The position numbers and the translations under genes are program-made. Of a DNA stretch of 64,000 nt, positions 4,812-64,000 are shown piece by piece. Under the pieces are notes generated by a model. It worked only from the letters and a program-made list of their open reading frames with translations. It made no database searches and had not been told where the DNA came from. Source of the stretch: Giardia intestinalis. Lineage: Eukaryota. The stretch is taken from NCBI GenBank assembly GCA_000002435.2, contig CM018793.1; one strand, given 5' to 3'. Within the stretch, counting starts at the first letter, position 1; each line of letters opens with the position of its first letter.

Positions 4812-4861
4812 CGTGTCAAGGTATTTCTCCAGATTTATTAGAGTGTACCCTCTTTGTTGAC

Positions 4862-6430: not shown

Positions 6431-6441
6431 CTTCCAAAAAA

Positions 6442-8049: not shown

Positions 8050-8288
8050 CCCGGACCTCTGTAAACGGCGCTCTTTAACGATGGGCTTTCCACTTCTACT
8101 TTTAACTTTTCTGTGCCCATAGGTTGGTATGAACACCTTTATCCACAAGCAGTGAGAATGCTCAAACGAACGTCTGGGATATTGAAGCTAATTAACACTG
8201 AAACTTAATTAATCTTCAAAATCACAAGGCCGAGGAAACTTAGAGGCTTGGCGAGAGTATACTGGTTGTTCCGTACTTTATCTAGGCT

Positions 8289-8312
8289 TATTTATCTAGG
8301 CTCTTAGGGGTA
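8289..8312 (+). promoter_or_regulatory. Tandem direct repeat (TTTATCTAGGC x2, ~14-bp period) immediately upstream of the NEK gene ATG.
   Basis: Sequence cTTTATCTAGGCttaTTTATCTAGGCtcttaggggtaATG, read directly. It sits at -35 to -8, where the AT-rich core promoter of this organism lies. Confidence 0.3.
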
Positions 8313-11069: not shown

Positions 11070-11111
11070 CGTAGCAATGCACGTGCTACTAGGCTATCAC
11101 AACTACTAAAA

Positions 11112-13205: not shown

Positions 13206-13234
13206 TTGGTGTGGAATTAAAAAGTATTCCTTTA

Positions 13235-28200: not shown

Positions 28201-31200
28201 ACCACCACTTAACAATAGTCGAAAAAATGCCCTTAAGGCCGTTATCGTTCATCTCTGGAAAGACCAGAAAGTTCAGATGCCTTTGCATACGATTTGTTAT
28301 TGTCTGTCGTCCACCTCCAGGCGGCCCCATAGCCGTGATGAGATACGTGTCAATGATCTGCTTAAAGAAAAGCTCGTCTCGGTCGTACCAGCCGCCGTGA
28401 TCCACCATTTGCCGAATAAGTTCAATGACAGGAATAGCTCCGTACTTCTCCTTGTTAGGAAGATTAAGGTCATCTATGAAAAGCACAAACTTCTTCCCTG
28501 CTACAGGCCCATAAACGCCCTTCCTCCGCTTCTCCATCTTTCCATCTATAAAATCTTGGGTCTGATTCGCCCCCGTCCTAGCGGAAAAGTTCAAAAAGAT
28601 AGGGATGTTTGTAGTCATGTCACTCGCGGGGCCTCGGAGAAGGTAATTCTTTATAACACTAGTCTTACCGGTTCCAGTTTGACCCACAGCAAGCACTGGG
28701 AATCCATTTAGAAGAAGCTTACGGACAAGATAGCTCGAGCGAACGGTGTCGGCTGTGGGAATGAAGATGTCTTGGAATTCAACGGTCTTGTTGGGACCTG
28801 TCCCCAGGCTGTCAATGGAAAATTCTGGGATTGTCTGCATCCATGGCACCCAGCGCGGTTGGTTCTCACCTTCTTCGTTATCATCCATAGTTACTTTGGC
28901 ATCTATCGGCGGATAGACAAAACAGTAATCGTAAATAGTCGTTGGATGACCGGTCTGGGGGTCTTTTTCAGGAAGCGGAAAATCTGCCAAGTAGCCGCCC
29001 TCGTTGATCCTTGCTCTTAGCCAGTTGTCAAAGCGCTTTCTGTCGTCTTCTGTCGCGATATTGCTGCCAACACCCCAAGCCAGAGCGAAGAAGAAGAAGA
29101 CCTCGAGATAAGTGTTCAGTGTGTCGATCTTCTGTTCCTCAATGACATTAAACTCATTTGGCTTGAACTCTCGGATGAAGCAATCAAGGATTTTAGTCGT
29201 TGCATGTATAAGATTTTGAGGGCACGATTTTATCATGCTCTGCGTGTTTTTGGCTACAAAATCAAGTGAGTCGTTGAGGTGTGAAACGAACAACTCCTTA
29301 AAGCGCTTTGCCACATCGGAGTACCTCTCCGTGACACCGAGGCGCGACTTCATCGAGGTTCCGCGAGAAGAATCAGCGTTTGCACTCTTTCCACGAGCAG
29401 CATTAGTCCCGACAACGCGCAAATCATCAGGAAGACGGTCAATCCATGTGTCGACATAGGCTGATGAGCTGACTGTGTCCAACCCATTGAAGAAGATCAT
29501 GCCTGCACGACTGACGGTGGCTGGGGAGGCTTCGGCGAGATCCTCGACTTCAAAAACAAGACTAATCACATTCGTTAAGGCAATGATTTCGCCAGATGTC
29601 AAACAGAGTTTCTTGTTGTCATCGAGAACAGTGTTCATAGACTCTATCCACAAGGCATCGATGGGTCCACAGATATGGAGCCACTGCCGCACATGGTCGA
29701 ACTTCCGGACGAATGCCGGTCCGTTCACCTGAGATATCGTTAAGATATTCTTGTCGGTGACACCATCGTTTTGCAAATACATAGACTGCTCAATATAAGT
29801 CGTATGCGCATTGTACGCAGCCACCGACTTTCTGATCAGGTCGGCCAGAATACCATCAGACCATTCGTGGGATACCAGGTCAAATTCACCATAAAGCTGG
29901 CCCATCGTGATAGACTTTGGATTAATGCGGTGGATCACTGCCTTCATGAATGTGTAGTCCTCGGGGATCTCCTTGTCCGCCTCAGCCAGGGTCATGCCGG
30001 GGTTGCTTCGGAGAAGCTTATTAAAGTGTGCAAGTCTAGCGTCATATTCTTCCTGATTAAGCTTGTTGAGTGCCAAGGCCAGCGCCTCAAGAGCCACGGT
30101 CTTTCCAGAAGACGTCTGGCCAACGGTCATGAGACCGTGACGAAGCAGAACAGTCTGGTACACCTCGATGACCTTATTGATGAACGATTCCTCTATCTGC
30201 ATATAGCCCATCTGATTGGACCGCAGCACGTATGTAATGCTTTCAATAAGTTTGGTGAAGTCGACATGCGGTGATTCTGTCCCTGGGAACATATCCTTGA
30301 CGATGTTGCCAAAAAGAATAACGTCATTGCTGAGGAACTTAGGTACGTTGACCTCTTTAATAGCGCGCAAAAGAATTTGCTCCTCTGTAACAGTTAGCTT
30401 TCCGTTGGACGTGTACTCCCGAATCATGTTGCCGGCAGCCTGAAGAGTGGTGTTGAGCGCACGCATGCCAAAGTCGTAGTGGTCCTGTGACGATAGTTGT
30501 TCTGAACTAAGCTTAAACGACGCAGTCGTCTTACGGGCAAGGATCTTCGCATTCTTGTATCCAAAGCTATAGAGCCGTATTTCTGCAATAAGAGAATAGT
30601 CTGGAACCATACACGAAACCGACCTAAACAAAGCCTTAAGATTGTCAGGCAGCTCAACGCGACCAGCGTATCCTGGGTTCATTGTGATGAACACAGCGCA
30701 GGTTGGCTTGAGGCTGATCTCGCGGCCTTCAAAGAGGAAGCGCTCCTGCCTGTTAATGATGGCACGTTGAATCGTCAAAATCTGCTGAGCGATAACAGAA
30801 AGAACCTCTATGTCAATGCGGTTGAATTCATCGAAGCAGCTCCAAGCTCCAGACATCGCCAGTCCGGTGAAGAACTTCCCCATGGCCTTGTAGTCTAGAC
30901 CCTCAGAGCAGTTGAAGACAATAACTGGCTGTGCGAGGGCTTTTGCAAGATCCTTTGTAGACTCTGTTTTTCCTGTTCCCGCAGGTCCTGCGGGAGCGCC
31001 TCCAAGATAGTTTGAAAGGGCAGAGGTCAAGGTAATATAGATTCTATCAGTAAGAGGAGTAATGACAAGTCGGGATGTATTGCCTAAATATTCAAAACCA
31101 TAGGGATAAGTGGTCTGAACCTGTCGGATATGCATGTCGATTTGATTATTGGTCTTGGTGAAATAAGTTCTGGCCGCAGACTGGACCTGAATAACACCGG

Positions 31201-34200
31201 TGTCTTCATTAGTCTCCAAGGAACCAGGATCAATATTCTGAATGGCTATGTCCAAAAGATCTTCTGGCTTGCTCTGATCAGGAACGTTGCAGACATAGTA
31301 TCGAAGCTGCGACATCCACTCGAAGTCCGACGTGCGCGTGATCTTCGCCTTAACGAGGTTAGCGACTGTGTCTCTGTTGTGAACGTCGAGGGTTAGAAGA
31401 GCTGCTAAAGTCTTTGCCTCAAGCTTCGTGAGTCCCTGCCTCACAAGGTCTGTCAGAGACGAAAGTTGCTCCTCTTGCCGAGCATAGAATTCTTCTATTC
31501 TCCCTTCTACAATAGCTGTTTCTGTGTCTGAGCAGAAGAAGAGCTGGCTTGCAGCCAGTACGCCCTGGGCAAAGAAACGGCGCACCCACTGAGAGCGGCC
31601 CTTGATTCCGTCACTGACCCACGCGACTTGATACGCCAAGATAGACTCAAAAATGCGCTGGCGAACGGTCCGAATCATCATCTTCTCGAGATTGCCCATC
31701 CAAACCTCAACAGACCCCTTCGGATAAAGAGGCTCGGAAAACTCAACCCACTCACCTTCGTGAGAGAACATCCCGCTCATCTGGTAATCCTGCTCCTCTG
31801 GGGCAAACTTGACCCGGTTGATATTTTCGAAGCAAGACCTGAAGTAAGGTTGTACGCAGTTCGGATCTCTTGTCTGAGATAAGATGGATAGGAGCTCTGC
31901 ATCGGACAGAAAGTAGAATCGGGGAAATGCTTGCCTTTTCGCCTCAAGATAGTCTGAAAGACCCTTCTGAACCGTATCAAGGATCTTATTGGACTCTCGA
32001 AGCTTGGGGAGGAGCTTATCTGTATTGAGGCATATCTCCAGCACATTGGGTGTCTTGTACGTATTCCCCATAAGCTTTCGCCACACAGCATCCACCGACC
32101 GAAAGTTCTTGCTTTCTGCGGGGAGCTGACGTGAGATATCTGGTGAGGAGAAGACAGGCTCAAGATAGAGCCACTGTTGCTGGACCTGGAGCCATACCTC
32201 TATAATTTCAGAAACCAAAGAAAGCTTGCGTTCCCAGGACGCGATCTGCTCCTCGAAGTATTTCTTGAAAGGAGAGAAGCCCATAGTCTGAACAAGTGTG
32301 ATGTTATCGTCCAATTTCTGAATGATATCATCAAGAGAGCGTAGAACATATGTATTGGTATTAGCGTACTCCAGTAGGTCAAACTCTACATCGGCCCATT
32401 CCGCCTGGATGTTTTTAAGAACCTGTTCAATCGCAAACTCCTTTGAGGCGACTTCAGAGACTTTTTGGATGATGTGCAGCTTTGATGGTTCGTTCAACCC
32501 GTGCACCTCGATGGCCTGTCTGAACGTATACTCGACAGGTCGCGAGTTTAGCTCAGCAAGCTGTTCTGCAGTGTACTCTGCATAGTCTGTTTCAGAGTCT
32601 ACGTCGTCATTCACGGCTTCCCCATTCGCCTCTGCAGCTTCGTTACTGGACCCACGCTGGAGCGTCGCATCTTTGACCTCGATGCCATTAATGTAACGCA
32701 GACATGATAGGTCGATGTTTATTTCTCGAGAAATGCGGTACCAGTGCCTTTTGCGCATTCCAGGGTTCCGCAGTGCAACGAGCAGTGGCATGTAGAGCTT
32801 GAAGTCCGCTATCTGTGTCTTCACCGTCTCTGCGATCTCCTTGGTATTCCCCGCATTATCTTTCAAGGAGCGAATACACTTTGCAATATTCCTGTATGCC
32901 TGGTCTACGTTGCGCTCTGTGACACTCGCGTCAATGACTTTGAAGTCGTTCTCCATGACCTCTGTGTACGTGGTGTTATAATCTAAGATAGTCTTCCAAA
33001 GGATGTTTAGAGGCTCGAAATCCCTAATGACCTGCTCAAGTCGTGTGTAGTCTGTCATCGGCAGGTCCATAATGATTTCACGTTTGTTAAAGAGCTTCGC
33101 CTTTTCTTGAAGACGGTTAAGCTGCCTGAAGATCTGCTCAGCGTCCTCTGCAGCAGCCACATAATCGGTGACGCTTGTGTACTTGAGTGGAAACGAAGTC
33201 ACCTGCCGAGTGCAGTTTTCTAGCGACTTTTCCAGGCTCTGCTGTTGCTGGTTCTGCTCATCCTTGAACTTCTCGCGATCCAGAGATAGCACCTCCATAG
33301 TCTTTGTGACCAAGTTGCGAATTTCCAACGGATATGACATGGTCTTGTATCGTTGTTGGACGACCTGGTTTGTCTGTCCGACAAAGAGATCATCGAGGAT
33401 AGAGTAGTAGTCAAGCATAATACCGATGTTGGCTTTCATGGAACTAATAATGCCATCTATCTTCCCTTTGATAAACTCCTCCGTGACAGAGACCTCTTCG
33501 ATGTTTTTGTTCTTACGGTTAATCTTTTTATTAATTGCAAAGTAGGTCTGAGAGATCATGTTCGACTTCTTACCAGCTATCTCAGAGATGATCTCCTGGG
33601 TCAGCTCGGCCAGTCTGAGACACTTGTTCGAAAGGAAGTTACGGACATTACCGTTTCGCACGACAAACAGGCCGACATGTACCGATTCTGGGATGCTCAA
33701 GAGAATATCTTTTTGTCGTGCTAGCTGGTCGTTAACAAGAGACCGCAGATCTGCAGGAGAGAGCGGCGTAGCGTTCTGAATGGCAGTCTGCATTGTCATG
33801 GGAAGACTACTAAACCCTTCAATTTCCGAGGTATCGCTGGTGGTACCTTCGTCCTTCTTAGCATCTGCCCCCATCTTCAGGTAGAGCTCTGCACGAAACT
33901 TTACAGTACTAGCCCATTTCTCTTCATCTAGTAGAATAAGCTCTGTATACCTGCTGAAGCAACGCAGATATTCAGTGAGCGGCTGAATTGCCGTCTCCAT
34001 ATACTCAACTAACTCTGTCCGGTAATTGACATAGAGCTCTTCCTGGACAGAAGGGCTGGCTATGTGAGTCCTGTCAGCCCATATAATGTTCTGGATAACA
34101 AGGGGCTCGATCTCCCCAACGCCAGAAACGGTGGTGAGCCCCGTCTCAAAGACTTGAAGGACAACCGAGATAAAGTCTTCCGGTTTGGTCATGTATGCGA

Positions 34201-36877: not shown

Positions 36878-36914
36878 GGCCAAAAATTAACTTGCAGACT
36901 TTTTGATTTCGGGA

Positions 36915-36924: not shown

Positions 36925-38268
36925 TCAAGCGTACTCGTCGCCGAAGTCCTCCTCCTCCTCGAACTCCTCGCCCTCGTCGACGCCGGCCTCCTGGTACTGC
37001 TGGTACTCGGAGACGAGGTCGTTCATGTTCGACTCGGCCTCTGTGAACTCCATCTCGTCCATCCCCTCGCCCGTGTACCAGTGGAGGAAGGCCTTGCGGC
37101 GGAACATCGCCGTGAACTGCTCGCCGACGCGCTTGAAGAGCTCCTGGATGCACGTGGAGTTTCCGATGAAGGTCGCGGCCATCTTGAGCCCGCGCGGCGG
37201 GATGTCGCAGACGCTGACCTTCATGTTGTTCGGGATCCACTCGACGAAGTACGAGGAGTTCTTGTTCTGGATGTTGAGCATCTGCTCGTCGACCTCCTTC
37301 GTGGACATGCGCCCGCGGAACATGGCGGCGGCGGTCAGGTAGCGGCCGTGGCGCGGGTCGGACGCGGCCATCATGTTCTTGTTGTCGAACATCTGGGAGA
37401 CGAGCTCGGGGACCGTGAGGGCGCGGTAGATCTGGGAGCCGCGGCTCGTCAGGGGCGCGAAGCCGACGAGGAAGAAGTGGAGGCGCGGGAACGGGATCAG
37501 GTTGACCGCGAGCTTGCGGAGGTCGGCGTTGAGCTGGCCGGGGAAGCGGAGGCAGCTCGTGCAGCCGGACATGACGAGCGAGACGAGGTGGTTGAGGTCT
37601 CCGTAGGTGGGGCACGTGAGCTTGAGCGTGCGGAAGCAGATGTCGTAGAGGGCCTCGTTGTCGATGCAGAAGACCTCGTCGGCGTGCTCGACGAGCTGGT
37701 GGACCGAGAGGGTCGCGTTGTACGGCTCAACGACCGTGTCCGAGACCTTCGGGGACGGGACGACGGAGAACGTGCACATCATGCGGTCGGGGTACTCCTC
37801 GCGGATCTTCGCGATGAGGAGCGTGCCCATCCCGGCGCCCGTGCCGCCCCCCAGGGAGTGGCAGATCTGGAAGCCCTGGAGGCAGTCGCACGCCTCGGAC
37901 TCCTTGCGGACGACGTCGAGGACGGCGTCGACGAGCTCGGCGCCCTCCGTGTAGTGGCCCTTCGCCCAGTTGTTCCCGGCGCCGGACTGGCCGAAGACGA
38001 AGTTGTCGGGGCGGAAGATCTGCCCGAAGGGGCCTGCGCGGACAGAGTCCATCGTGCCCGGCTCGAGGTCCACGAGGATGGCGCGGGGGACGTACCTGCC
38101 GCCCGCCGCCTCGTTGAAGTAGACGTTGATCCTCTCGATCTGGAGCTCCGAGTCCCCGCGGTACTCGCCGCTCGGGTCGACGCCGTGCTCGTCGGAGATG
38201 ACCTCCCAGAACTTCGCGCCGATCTGGTTGCCGCACTGGCCTGCCTGGATGTGGACGATCTCACGCAT
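36925..38268 (-). CDS. Beta-tubulin (copy 1 of 3).
   Basis: 447 aa [23 protein letters not shown]...[12 protein letters not shown]...EEDFGDEYA, canonical beta-tubulin throughout. The track's longer start (38289) is TTG; the real ATG is at 38268 after AATTTAAAA. High GC and strong codon bias. Confidence 0.95.
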
Positions 38269-53060: not shown

Positions 53061-55484
53061 TCAATTCTTCTTTCGGAAGACGAAAAACCAAACCAGCACA
53101 GCCGCCACACCGCCGACGACAAGGACCACGCCGATGGCGATGCCAGAGATGGCACTAGACGAGAGGGCGGACTTTTTGGAGGTGTTGTCGTACTCCAGAC
53201 ATATGGGTGTGGCTGCGCCCTCTGGAACCACGCAGAGGCTGCACTTGGAGATCGCCTTGTGACACGCCTTGCACGTGTTTTCGGAGAAGTAGTACCCGGT
53301 CAGGCAGTCGAAGCATGCCTTCCCATGGGGGCAGGTGGCGCAGCCCTTGGAGCACGCCTTGCATGCCCCCTTCTCCAGGTAGAACCCGCTGTTACAGGCG
53401 TTGCAGACCCCACTACTACACATTGCACAGTTCGTCGGGCATGTAAGGAGCGTTCCGTTGTACGTTATCCCATACCCAGCCACGATGCTATCACACCAGC
53501 CGTTATTCTCCTTCGTACAGACAGTCTTCCCGGGGAGGAGTGTGGAGGTGTAGCACCCCCCGTTGAGGCTGAAGGAGTTTGAGCTGCAGAGAGCACATCT
53601 ACCGTCGGCGACATTCACGCACGCGGTACCAGCCGCCCGCGAGCTGGAGGAGGTGCACACCCCGTTGTTGGGGTACTCCGTGCTCTTGGCACAGCGCGAG
53701 CAGTAGCTGGTCCCGCTCACCGTGAGCCCGCACTCTGCACAGCTGCTGTCCTTCACGCACTGCGGGACGCACGATCCCTTGGCACCGTCGCTGTACTGCA
53801 GCCGCTTCCTGGCAGGGCAGGAGGTGCAGTCGCCGGATGCCGGTCCGCTGCACGTGGCGCACTCAGAGCTGCACGGCTTGCATCCTCCCGAGCCCTCGAC
53901 GTAGAACCCGTCCCTGCACGTCTTGCACTTGGATTCCGACTCGCAGACTACGCAGTTGCCGAGCGTGCACGCCACGCACCTCGAGACGCCGCCCACGGTG
54001 GCCTTGTAGTACCCGGCGGAGCCCAGGCAGTCCTTCACGCACAGACCGTGGGGATCGAGGCTGTTGCCATCGGTACACTTTGTGCACACGTCTCTGTCCT
54101 CGCACGTGTCGCAGTTGGGGTCCTTGCACTTGGTCGCCACGCACTGACTGCTGGAGAGTGTGTAGCCATACTTGCACTTCTTACAGCTCGACTCGTCACA
54201 CTCAGCGCAGTTCTCCACCGCGCACCCGACACACTTCCCGTCCTTCAGATAGGACCCGTCATCGCACGCGCAGCTGTGGACCGAGGATGAGGACTCCTGC
54301 ACGCCCTTCTGCCCCTTGGGACAGCTGGCCAGGCAGCTCCTCTTATCCAGGCTCAGGTAGAGGTCGCGGCACTCCAGACACTGAAGACCACTGTCCTTCA
54401 TCTCACACCTTTGGCATCCCTCTATTCCCCCGTTGGCTGAGTCCCCGCAGCGCCAGCATCTGCTATTCTTGGTGAACACCTCTTTGGTTGAACTGTTACA
54501 TGTGGTGCAAACGTTGCCCTGCATTGCTTGACAAATATAAGATTCTATTTGATTCGGAGCATTATTAAATAAGTAGCATCCACCATAAAACAAGAAGTAT
54601 TGCCCGCTGCTATCATTCTTACAAGATGTGCATTTTCCTGTTCTAGGATCTTTCGTACAAACATTACCAAATTCGCTGATTGACTTACAGAGGCCATTCT
54701 GAGGCGCTTCTGATGAATTGGCGCATTGTGTGCACAACGATCGTCCCTGTATATCTATAGTATTTCTTGGTAAACAGATACTGTTACCAATTATACTATC
54801 TGCGGTATAACACCCAAACTGACTCCAGACGTAACCCCTAGGGCAAACATAACAATAGCCAAAAACAGCTGTGCTAGAAGCAGGCTTGCATCGAAAATCA
54901 AAAGGGCACATAACTCGTTCTGAGCATTCGCTACAGCTGGGTATAGTGTTCCCTGGCAACCTATGTTGGTTACAGTACTGACACCTATATACACCACTAC
55001 TCCCGCCAAAGCCTACTATATCTCCGCAGTAGATACAGCGTTCAGGAGAGGTCGCATTAGGGTTGGTAAAAGTTATTGGGGTATAATACCCACCGCCCTT
55101 TCCGCACTCTTGACAAATCCCATTTTCTGCACGATCGCAGATACTTGCTTTCCATCTGCCAGACAATTCATAGCAGCCACCGTAAAATAAGAAGTAACCA
55201 TTGTTACATCCTGTGCACCATCCACCTTTCGGCGATTTAACACAACCGGCTTTATTAACTTTTTCGTCTGTAGTAGCAACACATGTGCCATTGATGGGAA
55301 CATAATCCTGGCTACACTCTGTGCAAAAAAAAGTAGTTAAGTCCACTAGGCATCTATCCTGAAGACACTGTGGGATCCTGCCTTCACAAGAATACCCAAA
55401 GCCATTGTAGTATACAAACGTTTCCTCAGAGAAAGACCCTGCCAGAAAACAAGTCAGAATCACGATCAGCGAAGCCAAAATCAT
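53061..55484 (-). CDS. High-cysteine membrane protein (VSP-like ectodomain with non-VSP tail).
   Basis: Signal peptide MILASLIVILTCFLAGSFS. About 11 percent Cys with many CxxC and GGCY motifs. One TM segment (GIAIGVVLVVGGVAAVLVWFFVF) and a short cytoplasmic tail RKKN, not the VSP-specific CRGKA. Track start 55526 is GTG; the first ATG is at 55484. Confidence 0.8.
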   Translation of the reverse strand: MILASLIVILTCFLAGSFSEETFVYYNGFGYSCEGRIPQCLQDRCLVDLTTFFCTECSQDYVPINGTCVATTDEKVNKAGCVKSPKGGWCTGCNNGYFLFYGGCYELSGRWKASICDRAENGICQECGKGGGYYTPITFTNPNATSPERCIYCGDIVGFGGSSGVYRCQYCNQHRLPGNTIPSCSECSERVMCPFDFRCKPASSTAVFGYCYVCPRGYVWSQFGCYTADSIIGNSICLPRNTIDIQGRSLCTQCANSSEAPQNGLCKSISEFGNVCTKDPRTGKCTSCKNDSSGQYFLFYGGCYLFNNAPNQIESYICQAMQGNVCTTCNSSTKEVFTKNSRCWRCGDSANGGIEGCQRCEMKDSGLQCLECRDLYLSLDKRSCLASCPKGQKGVQESSSSVHSCACDDGSYLKDGKCVGCAVENCAECDESSCKKCKYGYTLSSSQCVATKCKDPNCDTCEDRDVCTKCTDGNSLDPHGLCVKDCLGSAGYYKATVGGVSRCVACTLGNCVVCESESKCKTCRDGFYVEGSGGCKPCSSECATCSGPASGDCTSCPARKRLQYSDGAKGSCVPQCVKDSSCAECGLTVSGTSYCSRCAKSTEYPNNGVCTSSSSRAAGTACVNVADGRCALCSSNSFSLNGGCYTSTLLPGKTVCTKENNGWCDSIVAGYGITYNGTLLTCPTNCAMCSSGVCNACNSGFYLEKGACKACSKGCATCPHGKACFDCLTGYYFSENTCKACHKAISKCSLCVVPEGAATPICLEYDNTSKKSALSSSAISGIAIGVVLVVGGVAAVLVWFFVFRKKN

Positions 55485-57279
55485 GGGGCTATTATTCTTT
55501 ATTGGATACCTATGAAAGTTACACACTAATCCGAGTCAGCCACTGAAAGCCTTGGCTTAGAATTACAACTGTCAGAATAATACCCCTTGTACTTCTTACA
55601 GACAGACTACAGCCGGCAGACCCATGGAAGGGCTCACTCTACTTACACTAGTCATCGACTCACACGGCGACCTGAGCAGCCTGTAATCTGGCTCTGCAAT
55701 GAAACAGTTAGGCGATCTGTTTGTCTCCATTCTCAAGCAGACTTGCCTAATTCAAAATTACTAACATACGCTTCAAAGTTTCGCAGGACTTACAGTACAG
55801 AAAACTCATTGGGAACATGTTCCGAGCAAACACGTTCGATACACAACCACCTCACAAAGGACTCTCTGCTATCAAGAAGATCCTCTCGAGGTCTATGAGT
55901 GGGGTAACTGTAAGCAAGCTCCTTGAAGAATGGCTGTTTTCAGGCGCCTGTCCATCCCCTTACCCCGATGTTCCAGGAGCCAGCATCAGTCATATCTTCG
56001 TTGAGCAAGGGCACTGTGGAGGGAACCCTGCAGGGCCTAACGAGCGTTCGGAGGTGCAGCAGAACAACGACGAGACACGGTGTGCCATCGCATAGGCACT
56101 AAGATCTCGCTGACCTGTGCACTGAAGGATGCAGGCCATCCGAGTCCTTCTCTGTATGCAATCGTAGCCTGCTGCTTTCGTCGGTGTTTGTCCTCCACGA
56201 GGGCCCTTATTACCCGAAGCCCTAGAGCCCTGAGGTCGTACTGCGGCAAGCATCTGCTCTACAGGTGCTGACGTACAGGCCACTTTACTTTAGTACTGGC
56301 AGTCGGAGAATACTTCGACGTGGTTTGTTCAGAGACGCCAGGAGTACAGCCAAGTACCTTGCCGACAAACACAGCATCCAGCCCCAGAAGAACATCTAGT
56401 CCTCCTGAGGCACGATGCGGCCATGTTTGTCTTCTGCTGGTACCGGGCCCAAACGGACAGCCTGCTTACCGAAGAAGAACGTATGCAGTTAGACACCTCT
56501 GAAGGCCTGGCCTGCCCTAGCAACCCAATTCACTGCGGAGTGCTCTTTGCTGCCCCCGCCCCCGGTGCACGGAGATTTAATCAAGTAAATCGCTATTTGG
56601 ACATTGAAACATTCCCTTCCTTATTATCAACAGCCGCCCTGCAGCCGCTACCGGAAGGACCCGCGTGTATGACCTTTGCTCTAACGCTAAGCAAGGGTGC
56701 TTTAATGTGTGGCAACGTAGAACTCGTTTCGACAAAGCATGCGGCCTTATCCACTCTCTCTATGTGCCTATTGGATAAGGCTCAATCGAGTACACACAAG
56801 CCTTTTGTTTATCAAAAAATACTACCTCTGGCCGAGCCTACCTCTCATAACCAAAACGAAGGCACTTACTGACGTGCAACACGATGGGAAAACGGACCCA
56901 CACTGTATCTTGAGGTAGCAGTCAATGATTAGGCAGGTGGTGCTTGCATTAGCGCATCAAAGGGAAAATTATGGACCACTGCCTCTGAACTTAATGTCAA
57001 GTTTGTACAGCCTAGCCCCATATGGGACGAAGCTTATGCGCATACATGAGTGGATTTGACTGCATAATCACATTGAGTTGAGATACAGACGACACAGGGT
57101 ATTACGGCCCAGTCACATGGAGTAATCGAGCTTCCTGTGGAGAACACCCTGAAAGGCTAGACCATCTGGAAAAGATACTTGACCTCACAACATTTGTAGA
57201 TCCATCACATATAGAGATCCGCTCATAGCCAGTGTGGTCATCGCATGGGATCCGTCGATGATGCGCTTATTATTTAAGT
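55485..57279. other. 1.8-kb block without convincing genes between the high-cysteine protein's 5' end and the VSP fragment.
   Basis: Only short ORFs, for example 56423..56872 (149 aa, true ATG, no features). Confidence 0.35.
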
Positions 57280-58086
57280 CTATAGCTTTCCTCTACAAAG
57301 GAGCCACCAGCGGCGGAAGCCGGCCAAAGCAGCAACAACGAGAAAGCCGGCCGCTGCCCCCTGCGATCGCTGCCCTCTTCCTGACCAGCTCCTTGGCTGG
57401 AACGCAGACGCCCTTCTGAGGACTGCGTCGATCTCACACATGCACACCCCCTGGTTCGATGAGGCCCTGGCGCCGCACCCTTCTGCACACGTCCGCTGGT
57501 CTACTTGGACGTTGTGGCCCGAAGTGACACACGAGAGGCACCTACCCGACTCATCGCAGGCAGCACACAACGGCATGCCAGAGGAACACTCGACTGCGGA
57601 CACACACCCGGATCTATCCAGCGCCGGCAGGAAGCCCCGCTCGCACCAGCACCTCCGCACGCCGCCGGACACCTCTCCCACCACCTTGTCCCCGGTGCAC
57701 TCCTCCAGGCACGACTGCCCGTCCAGGCTCACGAAAAGCTCCTCCGCGCACTCTGTGCAGAAGGATGTATGCCCGCAGGTCTTGCACCCCGGAGTGGCGC
57801 AGGGCAGGCACGCGTCTCCGTATGCGTAGTACCCGTCCACACAGGCGCCGGGGTCGACGCAGCTCCCGGTGGCGGCACCCGAGGCCTTCTTCAGGAGCTT
57901 GTCAGAGGGGCACCTGGTGCAGCGGCCGGGGCCAGGGGCAGTGCACTCCAGGCACCCAGGGGCACAGGGCTGCAGGCTCCCATCGGCCGATATCCAGTAC
58001 CCCTTCTTGGTCGTTGTGCACTTCCCGCCTGACTGCTTATCACAGATAGTACTTCCCGGATAGTACTTCGTTGTGTAGCAGCCCGT
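57280..58086 (-). pseudogene. Variant-specific surface protein (VSP) 3' fragment: C-terminal ~268 codons without a start codon or signal peptide. Tail is ...WWLLCRGKL.
   Basis: Minus-strand frame is open from the stop at 58087-58089 down to TAG at 57280-57282. It reads ...GKCTTTKKGYWISADGSLQPCAPGCLECTAPGPGRCTRCPSDKLLKKASGAATGSCVDPGACVDGYYAYGDACLPCATPGCKTC...TM...FRRWWLLCRGKL*. There is no in-frame ATG until deep inside. The track 'M' at 57840 is GTG. Confidence 0.6.
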
Positions 58087-58211
58087 TCATCAGGAAGGCC
58101 GCTTCAGAGCAGGCAGGGCAACCTAGGAGTGCACACCCGGCCCGGCGCTTGTCACAAACGACCACTCACAGCGGCAAACGGAGGTGCAGGCCTGCTTAGA
58201 ATGCGCGGAGA

Positions 58212-58218
58212 GTTTACT
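58212..58218 (-). terminator. Polyadenylation signal AGTAAAC after beta-tubulin copy 2.
   Basis: Minus strand reads TGAGTGAGTAAACTCTCCG. Confidence 0.5.
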
Positions 58219-58221
58219 CAC

Positions 58222-59565
58222 TCAGGCGTACTCGTCGCCGAAGTCCTCCTCCTCCTCGAACTCCTCGCCCTCGTCGACGCCGGCCTCCTGGTACTGCTGG
58301 TACTCGGAGACGAGGTCGTTCATGTTCGACTCGGCCTCTGTGAACTCCATCTCGTCCATCCCCTCGCCCGTGTACCAGTGGAGGAAGGCCTTGCGGCGGA
58401 ACATCGCCGTGAACTGCTCGCCGACGCGCTTGAAGAGCTCCTGGATGCACGTGGAGTTTCCGATGAAGGTCGCGGCCATCTTGAGCCCGCGCGGCGGGAT
58501 GTCGCAGACGCTGACCTTCATGTTGTTCGGGATCCACTCGACGAAGTACGAGGAGTTCTTGTTCTGGATGTTGAGCATCTGCTCGTCGACCTCCTTCGTG
58601 GACATGCGCCCGCGGAACATGGCGGCGGCGGTCAGGTAGCGGCCGTGGCGCGGGTCGGACGCGGCCATCATGTTCTTGTTGTCGAACATCTGGGAGACGA
58701 GCTCGGGGACCGTGAGGGCGCGGTAGATCTGGGAGCCGCGGCTCGTCAGGGGCGCGAAGCCGACGAGGAAGAAGTGGAGGCGCGGGAACGGGATCAGGTT
58801 GACCGCGAGCTTGCGGAGGTCGGCGTTGAGCTGGCCGGGGAAGCGGAGGCAGCTCGTGCAGCCGGACATGACGAGCGAGACGAGGTGGTTGAGGTCTCCG
58901 TAGGTGGGGCACGTGAGCTTGAGCGTGCGGAAGCAGATGTCGTAGAGGGCCTCGTTGTCGATGCAGAAGACCTCGTCGGCGTGCTCGACGAGCTGGTGGA
59001 CCGAGAGGGTCGCGTTGTACGGCTCAACGACCGTGTCCGAGACCTTCGGGGACGGGACGACGGAGAACGTGCACATCATGCGGTCGGGGTACTCCTCGCG
59101 GATCTTCGCGATGAGGAGCGTGCCCATCCCGGCGCCCGTGCCGCCCCCCAGGGAGTGGCAGATCTGGAAGCCCTGGAGGCAGTCGCACGCCTCGGACTCC
59201 TTGCGGACGACGTCGAGGACGGCGTCGACGAGCTCGGCGCCCTCCGTGTAGTGGCCCTTCGCCCAGTTGTTCCCGGCGCCGGACTGGCCGAAGACGAAGT
59301 TGTCGGGGCGGAAGATCTGCCCGAAGGGGCCTGCGCGGACAGAGTCCATCGTGCCCGGCTCGAGGTCCACGAGGATGGCGCGGGGGACGTACCTGCCGCC
59401 CGCCGCCTCGTTGAAGTAGACGTTGATCCTCTCGATCTGGAGCTCCGAGTCCCCGCGGTACTCGCCGCTCGGGTCGACGCCGTGCTCGTCGGAGATGACC
59501 TCCCAGAACTTCGCGCCGATCTGGTTGCCGCACTGGCCTGCCTGGATGTGGACAATCTCACGCAT
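58222..59565 (-). CDS. Beta-tubulin (copy 2 of 3).
   Basis: 447 aa, identical in protein sequence to copy 1. ATG at 59565 is preceded by GATTTAAAA, with an in-frame TAA at -6. Confidence 0.95.
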
Positions 59566-59744
59566 TTTTAAATCGGCGCCGGCGGAATCTGGATTTGGCG
59601 GCGGCCAAGTTCAGATTGCGTAACAATAAATATGCAATAATGACATGAATGCAACCACTGTTATATACCATAGGTGGTCCTGTGGGAATCCTTACTTAAT
59701 GGTACAAGGCGATAAGTCAACAAAGTGTTGGAGCACCTACGGAA

Positions 59745-61319
59745 ATGTCCAATAAATACAATATTTACACTACAAATGCCGTCTTAAAAATGTCCCTGCC
59801 TGAGTTGAACGAGCTCGAGCCCAAGGATCTCTGGCAAAACTTCTTCTTTATGTGCGGGATACCACATGGGTCGGGAAATGTCACGGCTATCGTCCAGGCC
59901 CTCAAGGAGCGTGCCGAAGCAGCCGGTCTCAAGGCGACCATTGAAGCCTCCTCCGGGAATCTTCTCATTGTGAAGGAGGCAGACCCAGGATGCGAGAATG
60001 CCCCAACAGTCTGCCTACAAGGTCATTGTGACATGGTTTGCAGCAAGCGTGCCACGACAGAGCACGACTTCCTCAAAGATCCGATTCGCCCACGTCTTGA
60101 GATGACGGACGGCAAGCTCTGTATGTATGCAAACGGGACGACTCTCGGGGCAGATAACGGGATCGGCGTCTCTGCTGCCCTCGCGATTGCTTGTGACAAG
60201 ACTCTGAAGACGGGCCGTATCGAGGTCCTCGTCACTATCGACGAGGAGACTACAATGCACGGCGTGAAGCACATGGGGACGGACCTTCTCGAAGCCAAGT
60301 ACTTGCTGAATCTGGACTCTGAGGACCTCGGGGTCGTAACTATTGGGTCTGCAGGAGGGTTCAATGGCAACTTTTACTTCAATCCCGCAACCTTCAAGAC
60401 CATAGATTGTGACTCTTGCAATTGCCTGAGTATTGAAGTCAAGGGATTCTCGGGTGGACACTCTGGCGTCGACATCCACCATTACAGAGGCAATGCTATA
60501 AAGATTATGGCGCGTATCCTGGACATTGCCTGTAGCCTTGAGTATCAAGGAAAGATTTGCTCCATCAAGGGCGGAACAGCCCACAATGCAATTCCTATGG
60601 ACTGTTCTGCCTGTCTGTGCTTCTGCGGTGTCAGTCAGGCCAAGATCGCCAGCTTCATTTCTGAAGCCAAAAAGCTTGCGGAGGATCTTAAGACTGAGTA
60701 CAAGACAACCGACAGTGACGCCACGATAGTGATTCATGAGCAGAGCCAGACCTGCCATGGCAAGTGCACTCATGCTCTCTATGTTTCGTCGCGCAGCCTT
60801 GTTGACTTTCTGCTTACTTGCCCCTCTCAGGTTATTCGCGTGTCTCAGGACGTTGAAGGCCTTACGGAGAGCTCGATGAATCTGGGCAAAGTGAGGTTCA
60901 GCGCAGAGAACCTCCCTGGGAGTTACATTGTCACTCTGTCTCGTTCGTCGGTCAACTCCTACCTTGATGCCAACGACAAGATGTTGGCTGGGCTCGCCCG
61001 CATGGCCAGGATCTTCAAGTATAGCGGCAAGCTGGATCCGTACGGCGGCTGGACCCCGAATCCTCACTCCAAGCTGCTAGAGATCTGCAAGAGGCACTAC
61101 GCAGACGCCCTCGGCGGGAAAGAGCCGATCGTGGAGGCCATCCACGCCGGCCTTGAGTGTGGCGAGATTATCTCTAGATATCCCAGCATGGAGGCTATTT
61201 CCATCGGGCCGACTATTAGGAATCCTCATAGTGACAGCGAACTCTGTGAAGTGGAGACTGTTCTGCCGTTCTACAATGTCGTCAAGGGCATTGTCTCGGA
61301 GATTGCCACCCTCCAGTAA
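59745..61319 (+). CDS. pepD: Aminoacyl-histidine (Xaa-His) dipeptidase PepD, peptidase family M20C.
   Basis: Matches bacterial PepD blocks: LQGHCDMV (vs LQAHLDMV), HDFLKDPIRP, NGTTLGADNGIGVSAALAIA, IHAGLECG, SIGPTIRNPHS. ATG at 59745. Confidence 0.85.
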   Translation: MSNKYNIYTTNAVLKMSLPELNELEPKDLWQNFFFMCGIPHGSGNVTAIVQALKERAEAAGLKATIEASSGNLLIVKEADPGCENAPTVCLQGHCDMVCSKRATTEHDFLKDPIRPRLEMTDGKLCMYANGTTLGADNGIGVSAALAIACDKTLKTGRIEVLVTIDEETTMHGVKHMGTDLLEAKYLLNLDSEDLGVVTIGSAGGFNGNFYFNPATFKTIDCDSCNCLSIEVKGFSGGHSGVDIHHYRGNAIKIMARILDIACSLEYQGKICSIKGGTAHNAIPMDCSACLCFCGVSQAKIASFISEAKKLAEDLKTEYKTTDSDATIVIHEQSQTCHGKCTHALYVSSRSLVDFLLTCPSQVIRVSQDVEGLTESSMNLGKVRFSAENLPGSYIVTLSRSSVNSYLDANDKMLAGLARMARIFKYSGKLDPYGGWTPNPHSKLLEICKRHYADALGGKEPIVEAIHAGLECGEIISRYPSMEAISIGPTIRNPHSDSELCEVETVLPFYNVVKGIVSEIATLQ

Positions 61320-61326
61320 ATTTTGA

Positions 61327-62790
61327 ATGCCGTTTATTCCGTGGGTGCTGTGTCGCAGACTCTCAGGCTTGCTCAGAGAGCAGATTCGCAGGTCCCTTGA
61401 GGCAGTGGGCGATTATATAATTCGCGGAAGAGAAGGAGGAACTAGACTCCAGTTTATTGTTATTCCATCCGGGGAAGCTGTGGCGTCATCACATCTTCTG
61501 CTAGACGAGATTATGGATCTTATTCAGGTTTCTTCTCCAGACACGCACATAGTGAGCTCTCTAGGGTCTGACATAATACAAAACGTTCCTTGGGATAGGA
61601 CGGACATTGCTTTGATCGTCGATGGAAACGACCTCTTTCCGCTACGGGGAAATGACGATGGTGCGCTTCGAGTCATGCGGTGTTTCCTATCCCATATAAG
61701 GGCCAACGAGGCTTCGCGCATCCTTCTTATCATATTAACAACCGCACTTCCCACTGTCTTCATTTACATGTTCAAGAAAACTATGGCCCGGGCCGTCGGC
61801 CAGATAACGCTTTTAGTGCCCCAGAGCATACAATGCTGTCCACTACATATTGGCATGGACCTCTGCGATAGTATCCTTGGAGAGCTGCTCGTAGAAGGAG
61901 TTCTCCCAAGTAAAGACAGTGTCAACTATATGAATAGTCTCGACGGGTCAGAACTTATAATGCTGCCTGAGATGATCTACCGAGCCCTTACACAGACTGG
62001 AGCAGTGCAGACTAAGGTAGCTAATCATCTGTGCAAGATTCTAAACACGTGTCTTCTAATATACCAAGTCATGATACAGCACATCCCCTTCCAAGGAGAG
62101 CTGAGTACATTTTGCTTGTTTCTAATTAACATGTTGAAGGGCCGCCTTGACCAGTGGCCCCACTCTCGGGCAATAACCTTGGCAACAGAGCGGGAAATGG
62201 ATACAGCCCAAATGGCTATTCTATCAAAGTGTATATGTGACATTTTAGAGAAAGGGTCGGTGCAATCAGACCCTAGGGACACGCCCCGCTGGGTCTCAGA
62301 GTACAACAGTATGCTCAAAAAAGAGGTAGCGTTGCTAAGCGACGACCTCCTAACTATAGAAAGTTGGCCTGCAAAACGCCGCACGCAGCACGCGCACACG
62401 ATTTTTAACACAGTATACGGAGGGATAATCGGACACCTGTTCCCCCTGTCTCTTTGGGATGCTGTCTATACAACGGAGAACAGTTCCTTGTTCCTCGTAG
62501 GACAGCATAACAACCCAAATATCCAACTTGACGGCTTGATTGGCTCATACAATGACACCATCTGTGAAGCAACCTGGAGCATTCTCAAGACAGTGAGGGC
62601 AGGGTCTATTGCTGTCAACACCCTCTTCCAACAAGCAGCAGAAAACTACTTCAAAACCCATTGGATACGGTCAGATGATCATACAACGCTGATCAGTGAC
62701 TTCATCACCTTCCTAATGGCACTGCAGCAGGCACAGATAGTGACAATCACCGCTCAGAGCGCCAGACTGATGGTTGAAATGATTATATGA
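61327..62790 (+). CDS. Hypothetical protein.
   Basis: ATG at 61327, only 7 bp after the dipeptidase TAA. 487 aa, no recognisable domain. Confidence 0.55.
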   Translation: MPFIPWVLCRRLSGLLREQIRRSLEAVGDYIIRGREGGTRLQFIVIPSGEAVASSHLLLDEIMDLIQVSSPDTHIVSSLGSDIIQNVPWDRTDIALIVDGNDLFPLRGNDDGALRVMRCFLSHIRANEASRILLIILTTALPTVFIYMFKKTMARAVGQITLLVPQSIQCCPLHIGMDLCDSILGELLVEGVLPSKDSVNYMNSLDGSELIMLPEMIYRALTQTGAVQTKVANHLCKILNTCLLIYQVMIQHIPFQGELSTFCLFLINMLKGRLDQWPHSRAITLATEREMDTAQMAILSKCICDILEKGSVQSDPRDTPRWVSEYNSMLKKEVALLSDDLLTIESWPAKRRTQHAHTIFNTVYGGIIGHLFPLSLWDAVYTTENSSLFLVGQHNNPNIQLDGLIGSYNDTICEATWSILKTVRAGSIAVNTLFQQAAENYFKTHWIRSDDHTTLISDFITFLMALQQAQIVTITAQSARLMVEMII

Positions 62791-62804: not shown

Positions 62805-64000
62805 GCAATCTGAACTTGGCCGCCGCCAAATCCAGATTCCGCCGGCGCCGATTTAAAAATGCGTGAGATTGTCCACATCCAGGCAGGCCAGTGCGGCAAC
62901 CAGATCGGCGCGAAGTTCTGGGAGGTCATCTCCGACGAGCACGGCGTCGACCCGAGCGGCGAGTACCGCGGGGACTCGGAGCTCCAGATCGAGAGGATCA
63001 ACGTCTACTTCAACGAGGCGGCGGGCGGCAGGTACGTCCCCCGCGCCATCCTCGTGGACCTCGAGCCGGGCACGATGGACTCTGTCCGCGCAGGCCCCTT
63101 CGGGCAGATCTTCCGCCCCGACAACTTCGTCTTCGGCCAGTCCGGCGCCGGGAACAACTGGGCGAAGGGCCACTACACGGAGGGCGCCGAGCTCGTCGAC
63201 GCCGTCCTCGACGTCGTCCGCAAGGAGTCCGAGGCGTGCGACTGCCTCCAGGGCTTCCAGATCTGCCACTCCCTGGGGGGCGGCACGGGCGCCGGGATGG
63301 GCACGCTCCTCATCGCGAAGATCCGCGAGGAGTACCCCGACCGCATGATGTGCACGTTCTCCGTCGTCCCGTCCCCGAAGGTCTCGGACACGGTCGTTGA
63401 GCCGTACAACGCGACCCTCTCGGTCCACCAGCTCGTCGAGCACGCCGACGAGGTCTTCTGCATCGACAACGAGGCCCTCTACGACATCTGCTTCCGCACG
63501 CTCAAGCTCACGTGCCCCACCTACGGAGACCTCAACCACCTCGTCTCGCTCGTCATGTCCGGCTGCACGAGCTGCCTCCGCTTCCCCGGCCAGCTCAACG
63601 CCGACCTCCGCAAGCTCGCGGTCAACCTGATCCCGTTCCCGCGCCTCCACTTCTTCCTCGTCGGCTTCGCGCCCCTGACGAGCCGCGGCTCCCAGATCTA
63701 CCGCGCCCTCACGGTCCCCGAGCTCGTCTCCCAGATGTTCGACAACAAGAACATGATGGCCGCGTCCGACCCGCGCCACGGCCGCTACCTGACCGCCGCC
63801 GCCATGTTCCGCGGGCGCATGTCCACGAAGGAGGTCGACGAGCAGATGCTCAACATCCAGAACAAGAACTCCTCGTACTTCGTCGAGTGGATCCCGAACA
63901 ACATGAAGGTCAGCGTCTGCGACATCCCGCCGCGCGGGCTCAAGATGGCCGCGACCTTCATCGGAAACTCCACGTGCATCCAGGAGCTCTTCAAGCGCGT
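62805..64000. repeat. Inverted-repeat arm B (54-bp flank plus beta-tubulin copy 3; continues past the window).
   Basis: Reverse complement of 58222..59619. The antisense spurious ORFs mirror those of copy 2 (for example 62798..63001 vs 59423..59623). Confidence 0.85.
62859..64000 (+). CDS. Beta-tubulin (copy 3 of 3), 3'-truncated by the window end.
   Basis: ATG at 62859 after ATTTAAAA. The first ~380 codons are identical to copy 2 wherever checked (including ATT at codon 4). Runs off the window. Confidence 0.95.

Follow-up and report, generated by a model that had tools for sequence, protein, structure and literature searches.

Two PepD-type dipeptidases with solved structures, Vibrio alginolyticus PepD (3MRU) and the Xaa-His dipeptidase of Haemophilus somnus (2QYV), represent peptidase subfamily M20C among bacteria. 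More distant members of clan MH, namely the human carnosinases CNDP1 and CNDP2 and the bacterial enzymes PepV and PepT, likewise combine a di-zinc catalytic domain with a lid or dimerisation domain, and CNDP2, the mammalian 'cytosol non-specific dipeptidase', is a functional analogue. However, these proteins yield Foldseek TM values of only 0.46-0.54 against the Giardia protein described here and share 12-16% identity with it; they belong to different subfamilies and are not orthologues. Among eukaryotes, EhMP20-3 and EhMP20-4 of Entamoeba have been described as M20C enzymes, and an equivalent set of active-site residues has been listed for Entamoeba (PMC1913524).

We analysed a gene for a protein of this type in a stretch of 64,000 nucleotides from Giardia intestinalis (contig CM018793.1), hereafter termed the window. 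The product aligns end to end with both solved enzymes (3MRU, E 2.7e-83, query residues 20-516; 2QYV, E 2.9e-78), with the same two domains, a colinear full-length alignment, and identical metal and catalytic residues, but with an identity of only 32-35%. Moreover, the Giardia protein differs from both by a 4-residue loop insertion after the DPI motif and by approximately 15 extra cysteines, seven of which are lineage-specific and located in the lid.

The TIGR01893 profile (M20C/PepD) covers residues 24-519 over profile positions 1-476 of 478 and scores 397.9 bits against a curated cut-off of 343.75, and Pfam matches were obtained for Peptidase_M20 (PF01546, residues 90-517) and M20_dimer (PF07687, residues 230-315). 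In contrast, NF011600 (PRK15026, cytosol non-specific dipeptidase), the equivalog of enterobacterial PepD, yielded 272.1 bits and did not reach its cut-off of 991. Judged by these profiles, the Giardia protein is a member of the same subfamily as E. coli PepD, but not an enterobacterial-type orthologue. The likeness to enterobacterial PepD claimed in the initial annotation hence holds for the subfamily and not for the enterobacterial type, and the most similar prokaryotic sequences are those of Thermoplasmata.

Gene model and the beta-tubulin inverted repeat

The translated open reading frame is 100% identical to XP_001707374.1, 'Aminoacyl-histidine dipeptidase' of G. intestinalis WB (GL50803_15832). 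The 524-residue product first reported for this DNA corresponds to the maximal frame, whereas the RefSeq model (XP_001707374.2 / KAE8305774.1) comprises 509 residues from Met16 and is identical to the translation from position 59790 onward. The N-termini of the homologues align from Met16, and its ATG is preceded by the A/T-rich sequence CTTAAAAATG, which resembles the tubulin sequence TTTAAAAATG. Translation therefore most likely starts at Met16, although the longer frame is present. At the 3′-end, the TAA stop codon is overlapped by AGTAAAT, which we take to fit the Giardia polyadenylation signal consensus AGTRAAY. Identifier and 524-residue length agree with two earlier reports, in which the protein was found to be expressed, metronidazole-adducted, and SUMOylated (PMC7190177, PMC12400078). 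The features of the locus are compiled in Table 1.

Table 1. Features of the dipeptidase gene and its surroundings (positions in the window; residues in 524-aa numbering unless stated otherwise; residue roles as predicted)
Feature	Position	Strand	Basis and remarks
Beta-tubulin, left copy, outward	58222..59565	-	Tubulin and Tubulin_C domains
Perfect inverted repeat, left arm, with 54 nt ahead of the tubulin start codon	58424..59619	.	complementarity to the right arm
Maximal ORF, GL50803_15832 / XP_001707374.1	59745..61319	+	ORF list and identity
Probable true CDS, 509 aa, M20C/PepD dipeptidase	59790..61319	+	XP_001707374.2 identity, homologue N-termini, TIGR01893, AF2
H94-C95-D96 codons, HxD motif: H94 as first zinc ligand, D96 as catalytic residue	60024..60032	+	invariant (H79, D81 in 509-aa numbering); aligns with HIDMV of 3MRU
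D137 codon, bridging zinc ligand in GADNGIG	60153..60155	+	invariant (D122 in 509-aa numbering)
E167-E168 codons, general base and zinc-ligand Glu, IDEET	60243..60248	+	invariant (E152, E153 in 509-aa numbering)
D191 codon, zinc ligand, NLDSE	60315..60317	+	invariant (D176 in 509-aa numbering)
Lid segment with seven lineage-A cysteines	60366..60767	+	alignment counts, AF2 strands
H495 codon, zinc ligand, PHSDSE	61227..61229	+	invariant (H480 in 509-aa numbering); aligns with PHS of 3MRU and 2QYV
AGTAAAT overlapping the TAA stop	61315..61321	+	read from sequence
Conserved Giardia hypothetical protein, 487 aa, second spacer gene	61327..62790	+	ORF; G. muris orthologue
Perfect inverted repeat, right arm	62805..64000	.	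complementarity to the left arm
Beta-tubulin, right copy, outward, cut by the window end	62859..64000	+	inverted-repeat match, sequence

As first described, the gene is located in the spacer of a beta-tubulin inverted repeat. The arms are 100% complementary over 1,196 nucleotides, their outer limit being set only by the end of the window, and they enclose a spacer of 3,185 nucleotides. The hypothetical gene reported 7 bp downstream is likewise present: the dipeptidase frame ends at 61319, the next ATG is found at 61327, and the gap reads ATTTTGA. Since open reading frames are adjacent or overlapping across the window and the compactness of the Giardia genome is known (PMC2723961), this short distance is unremarkable and has no bearing on the origin of the dipeptidase gene. 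The 487-residue hypothetical protein has no match in Pfam or NCBIfam; its orthologue in the corresponding spacer of Giardia muris aligns over the full length with 22% identity (E 4e-23). A scan of the spacer for bacterial promoters and terminators, which is not relevant to a eukaryote, revealed no enrichment.

The G. muris locus has the same layout, with tubulin genes on either side of the hypothetical gene and the dipeptidase gene, and arms of 4,060 nucleotides with 100% identity. The dipeptidase genes of Spironucleus and Hexamita do not show this inverted-tubulin layout. The tubulin-flanked arrangement is thus a feature of Giardia at the genus level. The inverted duplication is older than the split between G. 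intestinalis and G. muris. We infer that the identical arms are maintained by gene conversion. The location of the gene had been singled out as notable; as the layout is common to both Giardia species, however, it is uninformative with regard to a foreign origin.

Relatives among eukaryotes and origin of the gene

The dipeptidase had been put forward as a candidate for lateral transfer from bacteria. Taken together, our results suggest that GL50803_15832 is very probably a native, vertically inherited M20C dipeptidase of the PepD type that falls within a eukaryote-only group and whose tubulin location is unrelated to its origin. One observation underlying the initial annotation, an ordinary codon usage, is confirmed. 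The GC3 value is 0.65; ordinary genes nearby have values of 0.41-0.59, and tubulin reaches 0.98. Codon preferences correlate with those of the other window genes at 0.80, where these genes themselves range from 0.73 to 0.93. The codon usage is native, within or near the range of the window genes.

The closest relatives are direct orthologues with 52-70% identity (Giardia muris 70%, Hexamita 53-55%, Spironucleus 52%, Dysnectes 52%) in which both the loop insertion and the cysteine clusters recur. This fornicate lineage, termed lineage A, includes G. muris TNJ27749.1, two genes of Hexamita inflata, and one each of Spironucleus salmonicida and Dysnectes brevis, and was recovered with bootstrap values of 99-100; within it, inverted beta-tubulin flanks occur only in the two Giardia species. 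The Spironucleus and Hexamita orthologues are located on nuclear contigs of 1.2-1.7 Mb. As lineage A is common to diplomonads and the free-living Dysnectes, the gene is older than the parasitic lineage of Giardia. M20C genes are also present in the fornicates Carpediemonas, Kipferlia, and Aduncisulcus as well as outside Fornicata, and their presence in these protist relatives argues for an old resident rather than a recent bacterial import. In addition, G. intestinalis encodes a second paralogue (XP_001705176.1, 506 residues, 40% identity), the closest relatives of which are also fornicate genes. It probably corresponds to GL50803_8407; in the literature consulted, the secretome reference pertains to GL50803_8407 and not to GL50803_15832. 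When the second Spironucleus paralogue (P0012) was used as query, the matches listed were only prokaryotic or metagenomic, with 36-41% identity.

The wider relationships were assessed by neighbour-joining trees based on distances only (Scoredist, and gamma distances with a = 2.25, 1.0, and 0.6). The trees do not include M20C sequences of Entamoeba or any from Trichomonas, and two poorly extracted, gap-rich bacterial ORFs (L014 and L080), whose placement in the eukaryote cluster of the first tree was an artefact, were left out. With Scoredist, the eukaryotic M20C sequences were exactly monophyletic, at first with 35 of 35 (bootstrap 31) and then with 44 of 44 sequences (bootstrap 43). Under the three gamma settings, 43 of the 44 stayed together, and bootstrap values for the group were 20-25%. 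The median largest eukaryote-only clade contained 42-43 of the 44 sequences. The group draws on Metamonada, Andalucia, Balamuthia, Pygsuia, and Cantina and spans five supergroups; three members are encoded on contigs bearing actin, cofilin, cyclin, PSME4, and UBX genes. Carpediemonas, Kipferlia, Blattamonas, Pygsuia, Cantina, the second Giardia paralogue, Balamuthia, Anaeramoeba, and Andalucia are the neighbours of the Giardia protein. Every distance tree thus placed the Giardia protein in a eukaryote-only group with 43-44 members, an outcome that the initial annotation had set against lateral transfer, with weak to moderate support (bootstrap 20-43%).

Further comparisons gave a mixed picture. 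The other eukaryotic M20C proteins and the second Giardia paralogue share the family and the active-site set with the Giardia protein, and the signature residue Phe191 is present in 75% of the eukaryotic sequences, but in none of 226 prokaryotic ones. Sequences of the other eukaryotic subclade (subclade II) are approximately 35-43% identical to the Giardia protein and lack the cysteine clusters of lineage A, and several eukaryotic members carry GGHTG in place of GGHSG. On a profile HMM built from this other subclade alone, the Giardia protein scored 533 bits, as compared with 494 bits on prokaryote HMMs of equal size. In the reverse HMM test, a link to the eukaryotes was favoured for Blattamonas and the lineage-B sequences of fornicates, but not for Cantina, Balamuthia, Anaeramoeba, or Andalucia. 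Moreover, the eukaryotic sequences are long-branched, and long-branch attraction may contribute to their grouping. An insertion of 2-4 residues after DPI was considered as a synapomorphy and rejected, as it is frequent in eukaryotic sequences, but not universal. The eukaryotic M20C sequences apparently form a patchy, yet coherent group across five supergroups.

Given that the Giardia lineage lies within this patchy group, any transfer from prokaryotes to eukaryotes would have taken place long ago, and Giardia would not have been the recipient. At this level of support, the trees are also compatible with an early eukaryote having received the gene by ancient transfer. In such a scenario, a single prokaryotic gene, whose donor was possibly an anaerobic bacterium or an archaeon resembling Thermoplasmata, would have entered an early anaerobic eukaryote and spread by descent and transfer between eukaryotes, the Giardia copy deriving from a fornicate ancestor. 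The family is overwhelmingly prokaryotic, in line with the initial annotation, with nearly all named members of 7,583 representative clusters (E<=1e-3) being bacterial or archaeal. Among eukaryotes it occurs patchily, and many of the groups that have it are anaerobic or microaerophilic (Fornicata, Preaxostyla, Anaeramoeba, Pygsuia, Cantina, Entamoeba). Likewise, Thermoplasmata are the best-scoring prokaryotes against both the Giardia protein and the eukaryote profile, and their raw distance to Giardia (1.13-1.18) is smaller than that of most other eukaryotic sequences (mean 1.32). However, the trees provide no prokaryotic sister group (bootstrap 0-2). Thermoplasmata may have been the donor, being the most similar prokaryotes, but the trees did not recover them as sister group, and an HMM built from Thermoplasmata only gave the lower score of 424 bits. 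In addition, the group contains the aerobes Andalucia godoyi and Balamuthia mandrillaris and spans five supergroups, so that a gene already carried by the last eukaryotic common ancestor and lost in some of its descendants would fit equally well. We consider the ancient transfer a real possibility, while leaning slightly away from it; it is compatible with vertical inheritance in Giardia and differs with respect to the ultimate origin only.

A lineage-specific transfer from bacteria, either recent or at the level of Giardia or the diplomonads, is very improbable. The product is named after bacterial PepD and resembles it, and the roughly 100 hits that rank directly below the fornicate matches are of prokaryotic or metagenomic origin, with 39-44% identity. 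Nevertheless, orthologues are found in G. muris, Hexamita, Spironucleus, Dysnectes, and more fornicates, with a well supported core (bootstrap 100); the gene is nested in no prokaryotic clade, its tree neighbours are eukaryotic, it has native codon usage, and synteny at the locus extends to both Giardia species. In line with this, the supplementary LGT tables searched from Alsmark et al. 2013 contain no entry for GL50803_15832. The word 'dipeptidase' does not occur in the Spironucleus survey paper or the G. muris genome paper, and the literature searched, outside of which Morrison et al. 2007 lies, contained no report naming a Giardia dipeptidase as a lateral transfer.

Predicted active site and lid cysteines

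All seven metal and catalytic residues (H94, D96, D137, E167, E168, D191, and H495) are retained in the Giardia protein and invariant across 61 homologues, which answers positively the question of whether the zinc-binding His/Asp/Glu set is present. They align with the corresponding motifs of 3MRU and 2QYV, and the residue list of Entamoeba EhMP20-3 parallels this set (PMC1913524). The GGHSG, HAGLECG, and PHS motifs are intact as well. The AF2 model (pLDDT 94) superposes on 3MRU with Foldseek TM values of 0.88/0.92 and an rmsd of 2.6 A, and together with the Pfam matches it indicates the PepD architecture, in which a large lid domain is inserted into the catalytic M20 domain.

From its homology with the bacterial enzymes, the protein is predicted to be a di-zinc exopeptidase of the cytosol that consists of two domains and belongs to MEROPS subfamily M20C. 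The catalytic domain is predicted to bind two Zn2+ ions through H94, D137, E168, D191, and H495, with E167 as the putative general base and D96 positioning the first histidine; these roles are assumed from the Vibrio PepD structure and from the residue list of Entamoeba (PMC1913524). The lid domain would shut over the dipeptide, and cleavage of Xaa-His and other dipeptides would supply free amino acids to an organism that scavenges them. No assay of the recombinant enzyme turned up in the literature searched. That the protein is instead an inactive pseudo-peptidase with a non-enzymatic role is hardly credible: although cysteines are enriched in this lineage (22 versus 4-7 in sampled prokaryotic PepDs) and the conserved NAIPRE motif is changed to NAIPMD, the residues and motifs named above are intact, the high-confidence predicted fold superposes on active PepD, and conservation between Giardia species is strong (70-84% identity).

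Seven cysteines of the lid (C210, C212, C257, C275, C277, C322, and C326 in 509-aa numbering) are specific to fornicate lineage A. At each of these positions, 7-9 of the 10 lineage-A sequences have a cysteine, as compared with only 2-13 among 260 other sequences, and in the AF2 model they lie on or beside the predicted lid strands 212-218, 255-261, 272-277, and 326-329. This lineage-specific set is possibly a new detail. The diplomonads and Dysnectes are glutathione-free microaerophiles, and the lid cysteines of their lineage might conceivably make up an additional site for metal binding or redox sensing through which closure of the lid is regulated, a proposal we regard as unlikely. If it were true, reactive lid thiols could also explain the adduction of the dipeptidase by activated metronidazole.

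Implications for Giardia and the M20C family

The gene itself offers little in terms of discovery, as it is annotated in every Giardia genome, has been seen in proteomic studies, and has a conventional predicted function. For the tubulin locus, arms that are fully identical in both species represent a clear case of concerted evolution. The locus is also relevant to the genotyping of benzimidazole resistance, where all tubulin copies must change. With regard to the dipeptidase, a false lead is removed, in that PepD is not a Giardia-specific bacterial acquisition. The eukaryotic M20C group bears on the debate as to what share of the metabolism of anaerobic protists arose by lateral transfer and what share from ancestral genes that were lost elsewhere.

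The PepD gene and its product

The open reading frame (ORF) at 59745-61319 (+) was found as the initial annotation had described it, and its 524-aa product is identical at every residue to XP_001707374.1, 'Aminoacyl-histidine dipeptidase [Giardia lamblia ATCC 50803]'. The revised 509-aa model (XP_001707374.2/KAE8305774.1) corresponds with a 100% match to the product from Met16 on. In GiardiaDB the gene is listed as GL50803_15832; the protein, given as 524 aa, has been found among metronidazole-adducted proteins (PMC7190177), and its HA-tagged form was reported as a SUMO substrate (PMC12400078). Given this identity and these two reports, the feature is real, expressed and previously annotated. 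Gene and function had both been described before, so the find is of low interest.

In alignments, the homologues of further fornicates, other Giardia species included, start at the position of Met16. Moreover, the ATG at 59790 is preceded by the A/T-rich element CTTAAAAATG, which is of the same kind as the A/T-rich TTTAAAAATG before the tubulin ATG, whereas the first ATG at 59745 lacks such a context. The sequence context and the homologous starts therefore indicate that the coding sequence probably comprises positions 59790-61319 (509 aa). The TAA stop codon lies within AGTAAAT, which fits what we take to be the Giardia polyadenylation consensus, AGTRAAY. The next gene starts at 61327, seven bases past the end of PepD, in keeping with the dense packing of ORFs throughout the window.

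The assignment to the PepD-type enzymes is corroborated by family models, by alignment to solved structures and by the predicted fold. The product scores 397.9 bits with NCBIfam TIGR01893 (aa-his-dipept; cut-off 343.75), covering nearly the whole profile, and only 272 bits with the E. coli PepD equivalog model (cut-off 991); Pfam indicates a Peptidase_M20 domain with an inserted M20_dimer domain. It aligns colinearly to the PepD structure of Vibrio alginolyticus (3MRU, E 2.7e-83) and to the Xaa-His dipeptidase of Haemophilus somnus (2QYV, E 2.9e-78). An AlphaFold2 model built from a 61-sequence alignment (mean pLDDT 94, pTM 0.88) likewise has 3MRU (TM 0.88/0.92, rmsd 2.6 Å) and 2QYV as its top structural matches, with PepT, DapE, CPG2 and carnosinase far behind. 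The set of zinc-binding and catalytic His, Asp and Glu residues is complete: all seven (H94, D96, D137, E167, E168, D191 and H495 in the 524-aa numbering) are present and invariant in the alignments, and they correspond to the seven listed for the Entamoeba M20C enzymes (PMC1913524). We infer a mechanism of the standard M20 type, in which Asp137 would bridge two zinc ions, Glu167 would activate a water molecule for attack on the peptide bond, and the dipeptide would be clasped between the catalytic and lid domains. The N-terminus lines up with the N-terminus of the cytosolic bacterial PepD and thus shows no evident likeness to a signal peptide, which suggests a cytosolic role in amino-acid salvage.

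The Giardia-type lineage is rich in cysteine, the 509-aa protein containing 22, compared with 4-7 in the sampled prokaryotic PepDs. Seven of them (C210, C212, C257, C275, C277, C322 and C326, 509-aa numbering) are kept in 7-9 of the 10 members of this lineage, which comprises the Giardia, Hexamita, Spironucleus and Dysnectes orthologues; of 260 other sequences, no more than 13 carry cysteine at any one of these positions. In the AlphaFold2 model they lie on or beside neighbouring strands of the lid domain and, speculatively, may constitute an extra metal or redox site.

The tubulin inverted repeat

The inverted repeat seen initially is perfect, its outer limit being imposed by the end of the window. 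Each arm contains one outward-transcribed beta-tubulin gene and 54 nt of upstream sequence common to both copies, and the 3,185-nt spacer contains PepD and a hypothetical gene as its sole genes.

Coordinates of PepD-associated features, neighbouring ORFs and the corresponding Giardia muris locus
Feature	Position	Strand	Remarks
Seven-cysteine segment of PepD	60366-60767	+	motifs C-x-C, C-x-C-F, C-x3-C
Inverted-repeat arms	58424-59619, 62805-64000		100% complementary
Beta-tubulin	58222-59565	-	flanks PepD
Beta-tubulin	62859-64000	+	flanks PepD
Beta-tubulin, third copy	36925-38268	-	
Hypothetical protein	61327-62790	+	487 aa; no Pfam or NCBIfam match
Antisense ORF over tubulin	58129-59571	+	480 aa
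Antisense ORF over tubulin	62853-63779	-	308 aa
VSP-family surface protein	53061-55526	-	821 aa, cysteine-rich; Pfam VSP, E 9e-83
CXXC-rich fragment	57280-57840	-	186 aa, ends ...CRGKL; resembles truncated VSP tail
Dynein heavy chain	22244-36883	-	4,879 aa, complete; AAA, stalk and C-terminal domains
G. muris L001 (CM016927.1), arms	2316-6375, 9576-13635		
G. muris L001 (CM016927.1), spacer	6376-9575		

All three beta-tubulin genes are found in a stretch of about 27 kb, and their coding sequences are 99-100% identical (GC3 0.98). With the third copy, whose coding sequence is identical, the shared flank shrinks to about 8 nt upstream and 12 nt downstream, and the copies together suggest ongoing gene conversion mainly confined to the coding region. 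The antisense ORFs over the tubulin genes are almost certainly not genes; the products they would encode are of low complexity with much Arg, Ala, Glu and Leu, a composition that the extreme GC3 of tubulin would lead one to expect. Besides beta-tubulin, the window contains a VSP-family gene, an axonemal-type dynein heavy chain and ankyrin-repeat genes; the VSP ORF and the VSP-tail-like ORF are located just outside the left tubulin copy.

The initial annotation considered the position of PepD within the spacer notable. The same layout is present in G. muris, in the order tubulin (-), the orthologue of the hypothetical protein (475 aa, E 4e-23), PepD and tubulin (+), with 4,060-nt arms that are 100% identical and a 3,200-nt spacer. 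The hypothetical protein has just 22% identity to this orthologue, yet both are kept beside PepD in the same spacer. The relative orientation of PepD and the hypothetical gene is reversed between the two species; since their split, therefore, either one gene alone has been inverted, or the spacer has flipped and an inversion has occurred besides. Tubulin does not lie beside the PepD orthologues of Spironucleus salmonicida or Hexamita inflata, which places the origin of the arrangement in the Giardia lineage, ahead of the G. intestinalis/G. muris split. The arms have stayed identical since, presumably by gene conversion. The location within the inverted repeat is thus uninformative as to where PepD came from.

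Relationships among M20C proteins

When relatives were sought among 5.8 billion proteins, the best matches were other Giardia (84%; G. muris 70%), followed by Hexamita inflata, with two genes at 55% and 53%, by Spironucleus salmonicida and Dysnectes brevis, each at 52%, and then by several further assemblies. Prokaryotes appeared only thereafter at 39-44%, Thermoplasmata archaea first. A HMMER search run exhaustively over 1.84 billion cluster representatives yielded a family of 7,583 members, of which the best 150 were aligned with 80 named genes of bacteria and archaea for tree building. All trees were inferred by neighbour-joining, that is, by distance methods only.

The Giardia/Hexamita/Spironucleus/Dysnectes lineage obtained a bootstrap support of 99-100, and its neighbours, once identified, were all eukaryotic. 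Among fornicates they comprise Carpediemonas, Kipferlia, a second Giardia paralogue (XP_001705176.1) and more Spironucleus and Dysnectes paralogues, and beyond them Blattamonas (Preaxostyla), Pygsuia (Breviatea) and Cantina (an anaerobic stramenopile); the contigs of three further members carry actin, cofilin, cyclin, PSME4, UBX and Swi3 genes. A profile of these sequences retrieved Balamuthia mandrillaris, Anaeramoeba flamelloides (three genes) and Andalucia godoyi. An additional S. salmonicida paralogue (P0012, 482 aa) is without a close database relative, its best matches being bacterial or metagenomic at 40%; trees nevertheless place it with the fornicate subclade (bootstrap 67-68), and it has only five cysteines, unlike its relatives in the Giardia-type lineage.

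With L-INS-i alignments and Scoredist distances, the eukaryotic M20C sequences formed one exact clade free of prokaryotes, first 35 of 35 and then 44 of 44, at bootstrap values of 31% and 43%. Under gamma-corrected distances (a = 2.25, 1.0 and 0.6) 43 of the 44 stayed together, and the median bootstrap replicate held 42-43 in a pure clade. Moreover, proteins of the Giardia lineage match an HMM made from the other eukaryotic subclade alone better, by 25-50 bits, than prokaryote HMMs of equal size, and Phe191 (509-aa numbering) is found in 75% of eukaryotic but in 0 of 226 prokaryotic sequences. The reverse HMM test favours the eukaryotic link only for Blattamonas and for the fornicate sequences of a second paralogue lineage (lineage B). 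By raw distance, Thermoplasmata are nearer to Giardia PepD than most eukaryotic sequences are; branches are long throughout the eukaryotic sequences, and deep support is modest. We place PepD in a broad eukaryotic clade with moderate confidence, 43-44 of the 44 sequences grouping together; such a placement is what the initial annotation had named as refuting a lateral transfer.

The initial suggestion of a lateral transfer into the Giardia genome is not supported, given the eukaryotic tree neighbours, the fornicate orthologues and the native codon usage, which a codon-usage comparison bore out as first noted; nor did the literature searched list GL50803_15832 as laterally transferred. The neighbour-joining trees resolved no prokaryotic sister group of the eukaryotic sequences. 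A single, very old transfer of an M20C gene into an early eukaryote is possible, and so is an M20C gene that the last eukaryotic common ancestor already had and that was later lost many times. For Giardia, or for diplomonads, acquisition by transfer can effectively be excluded. Fornicates carry two or three old M20C paralogue lineages, and Giardia PepD has been inherited vertically from the ancestor that diplomonads share with Dysnectes, or from an earlier one.
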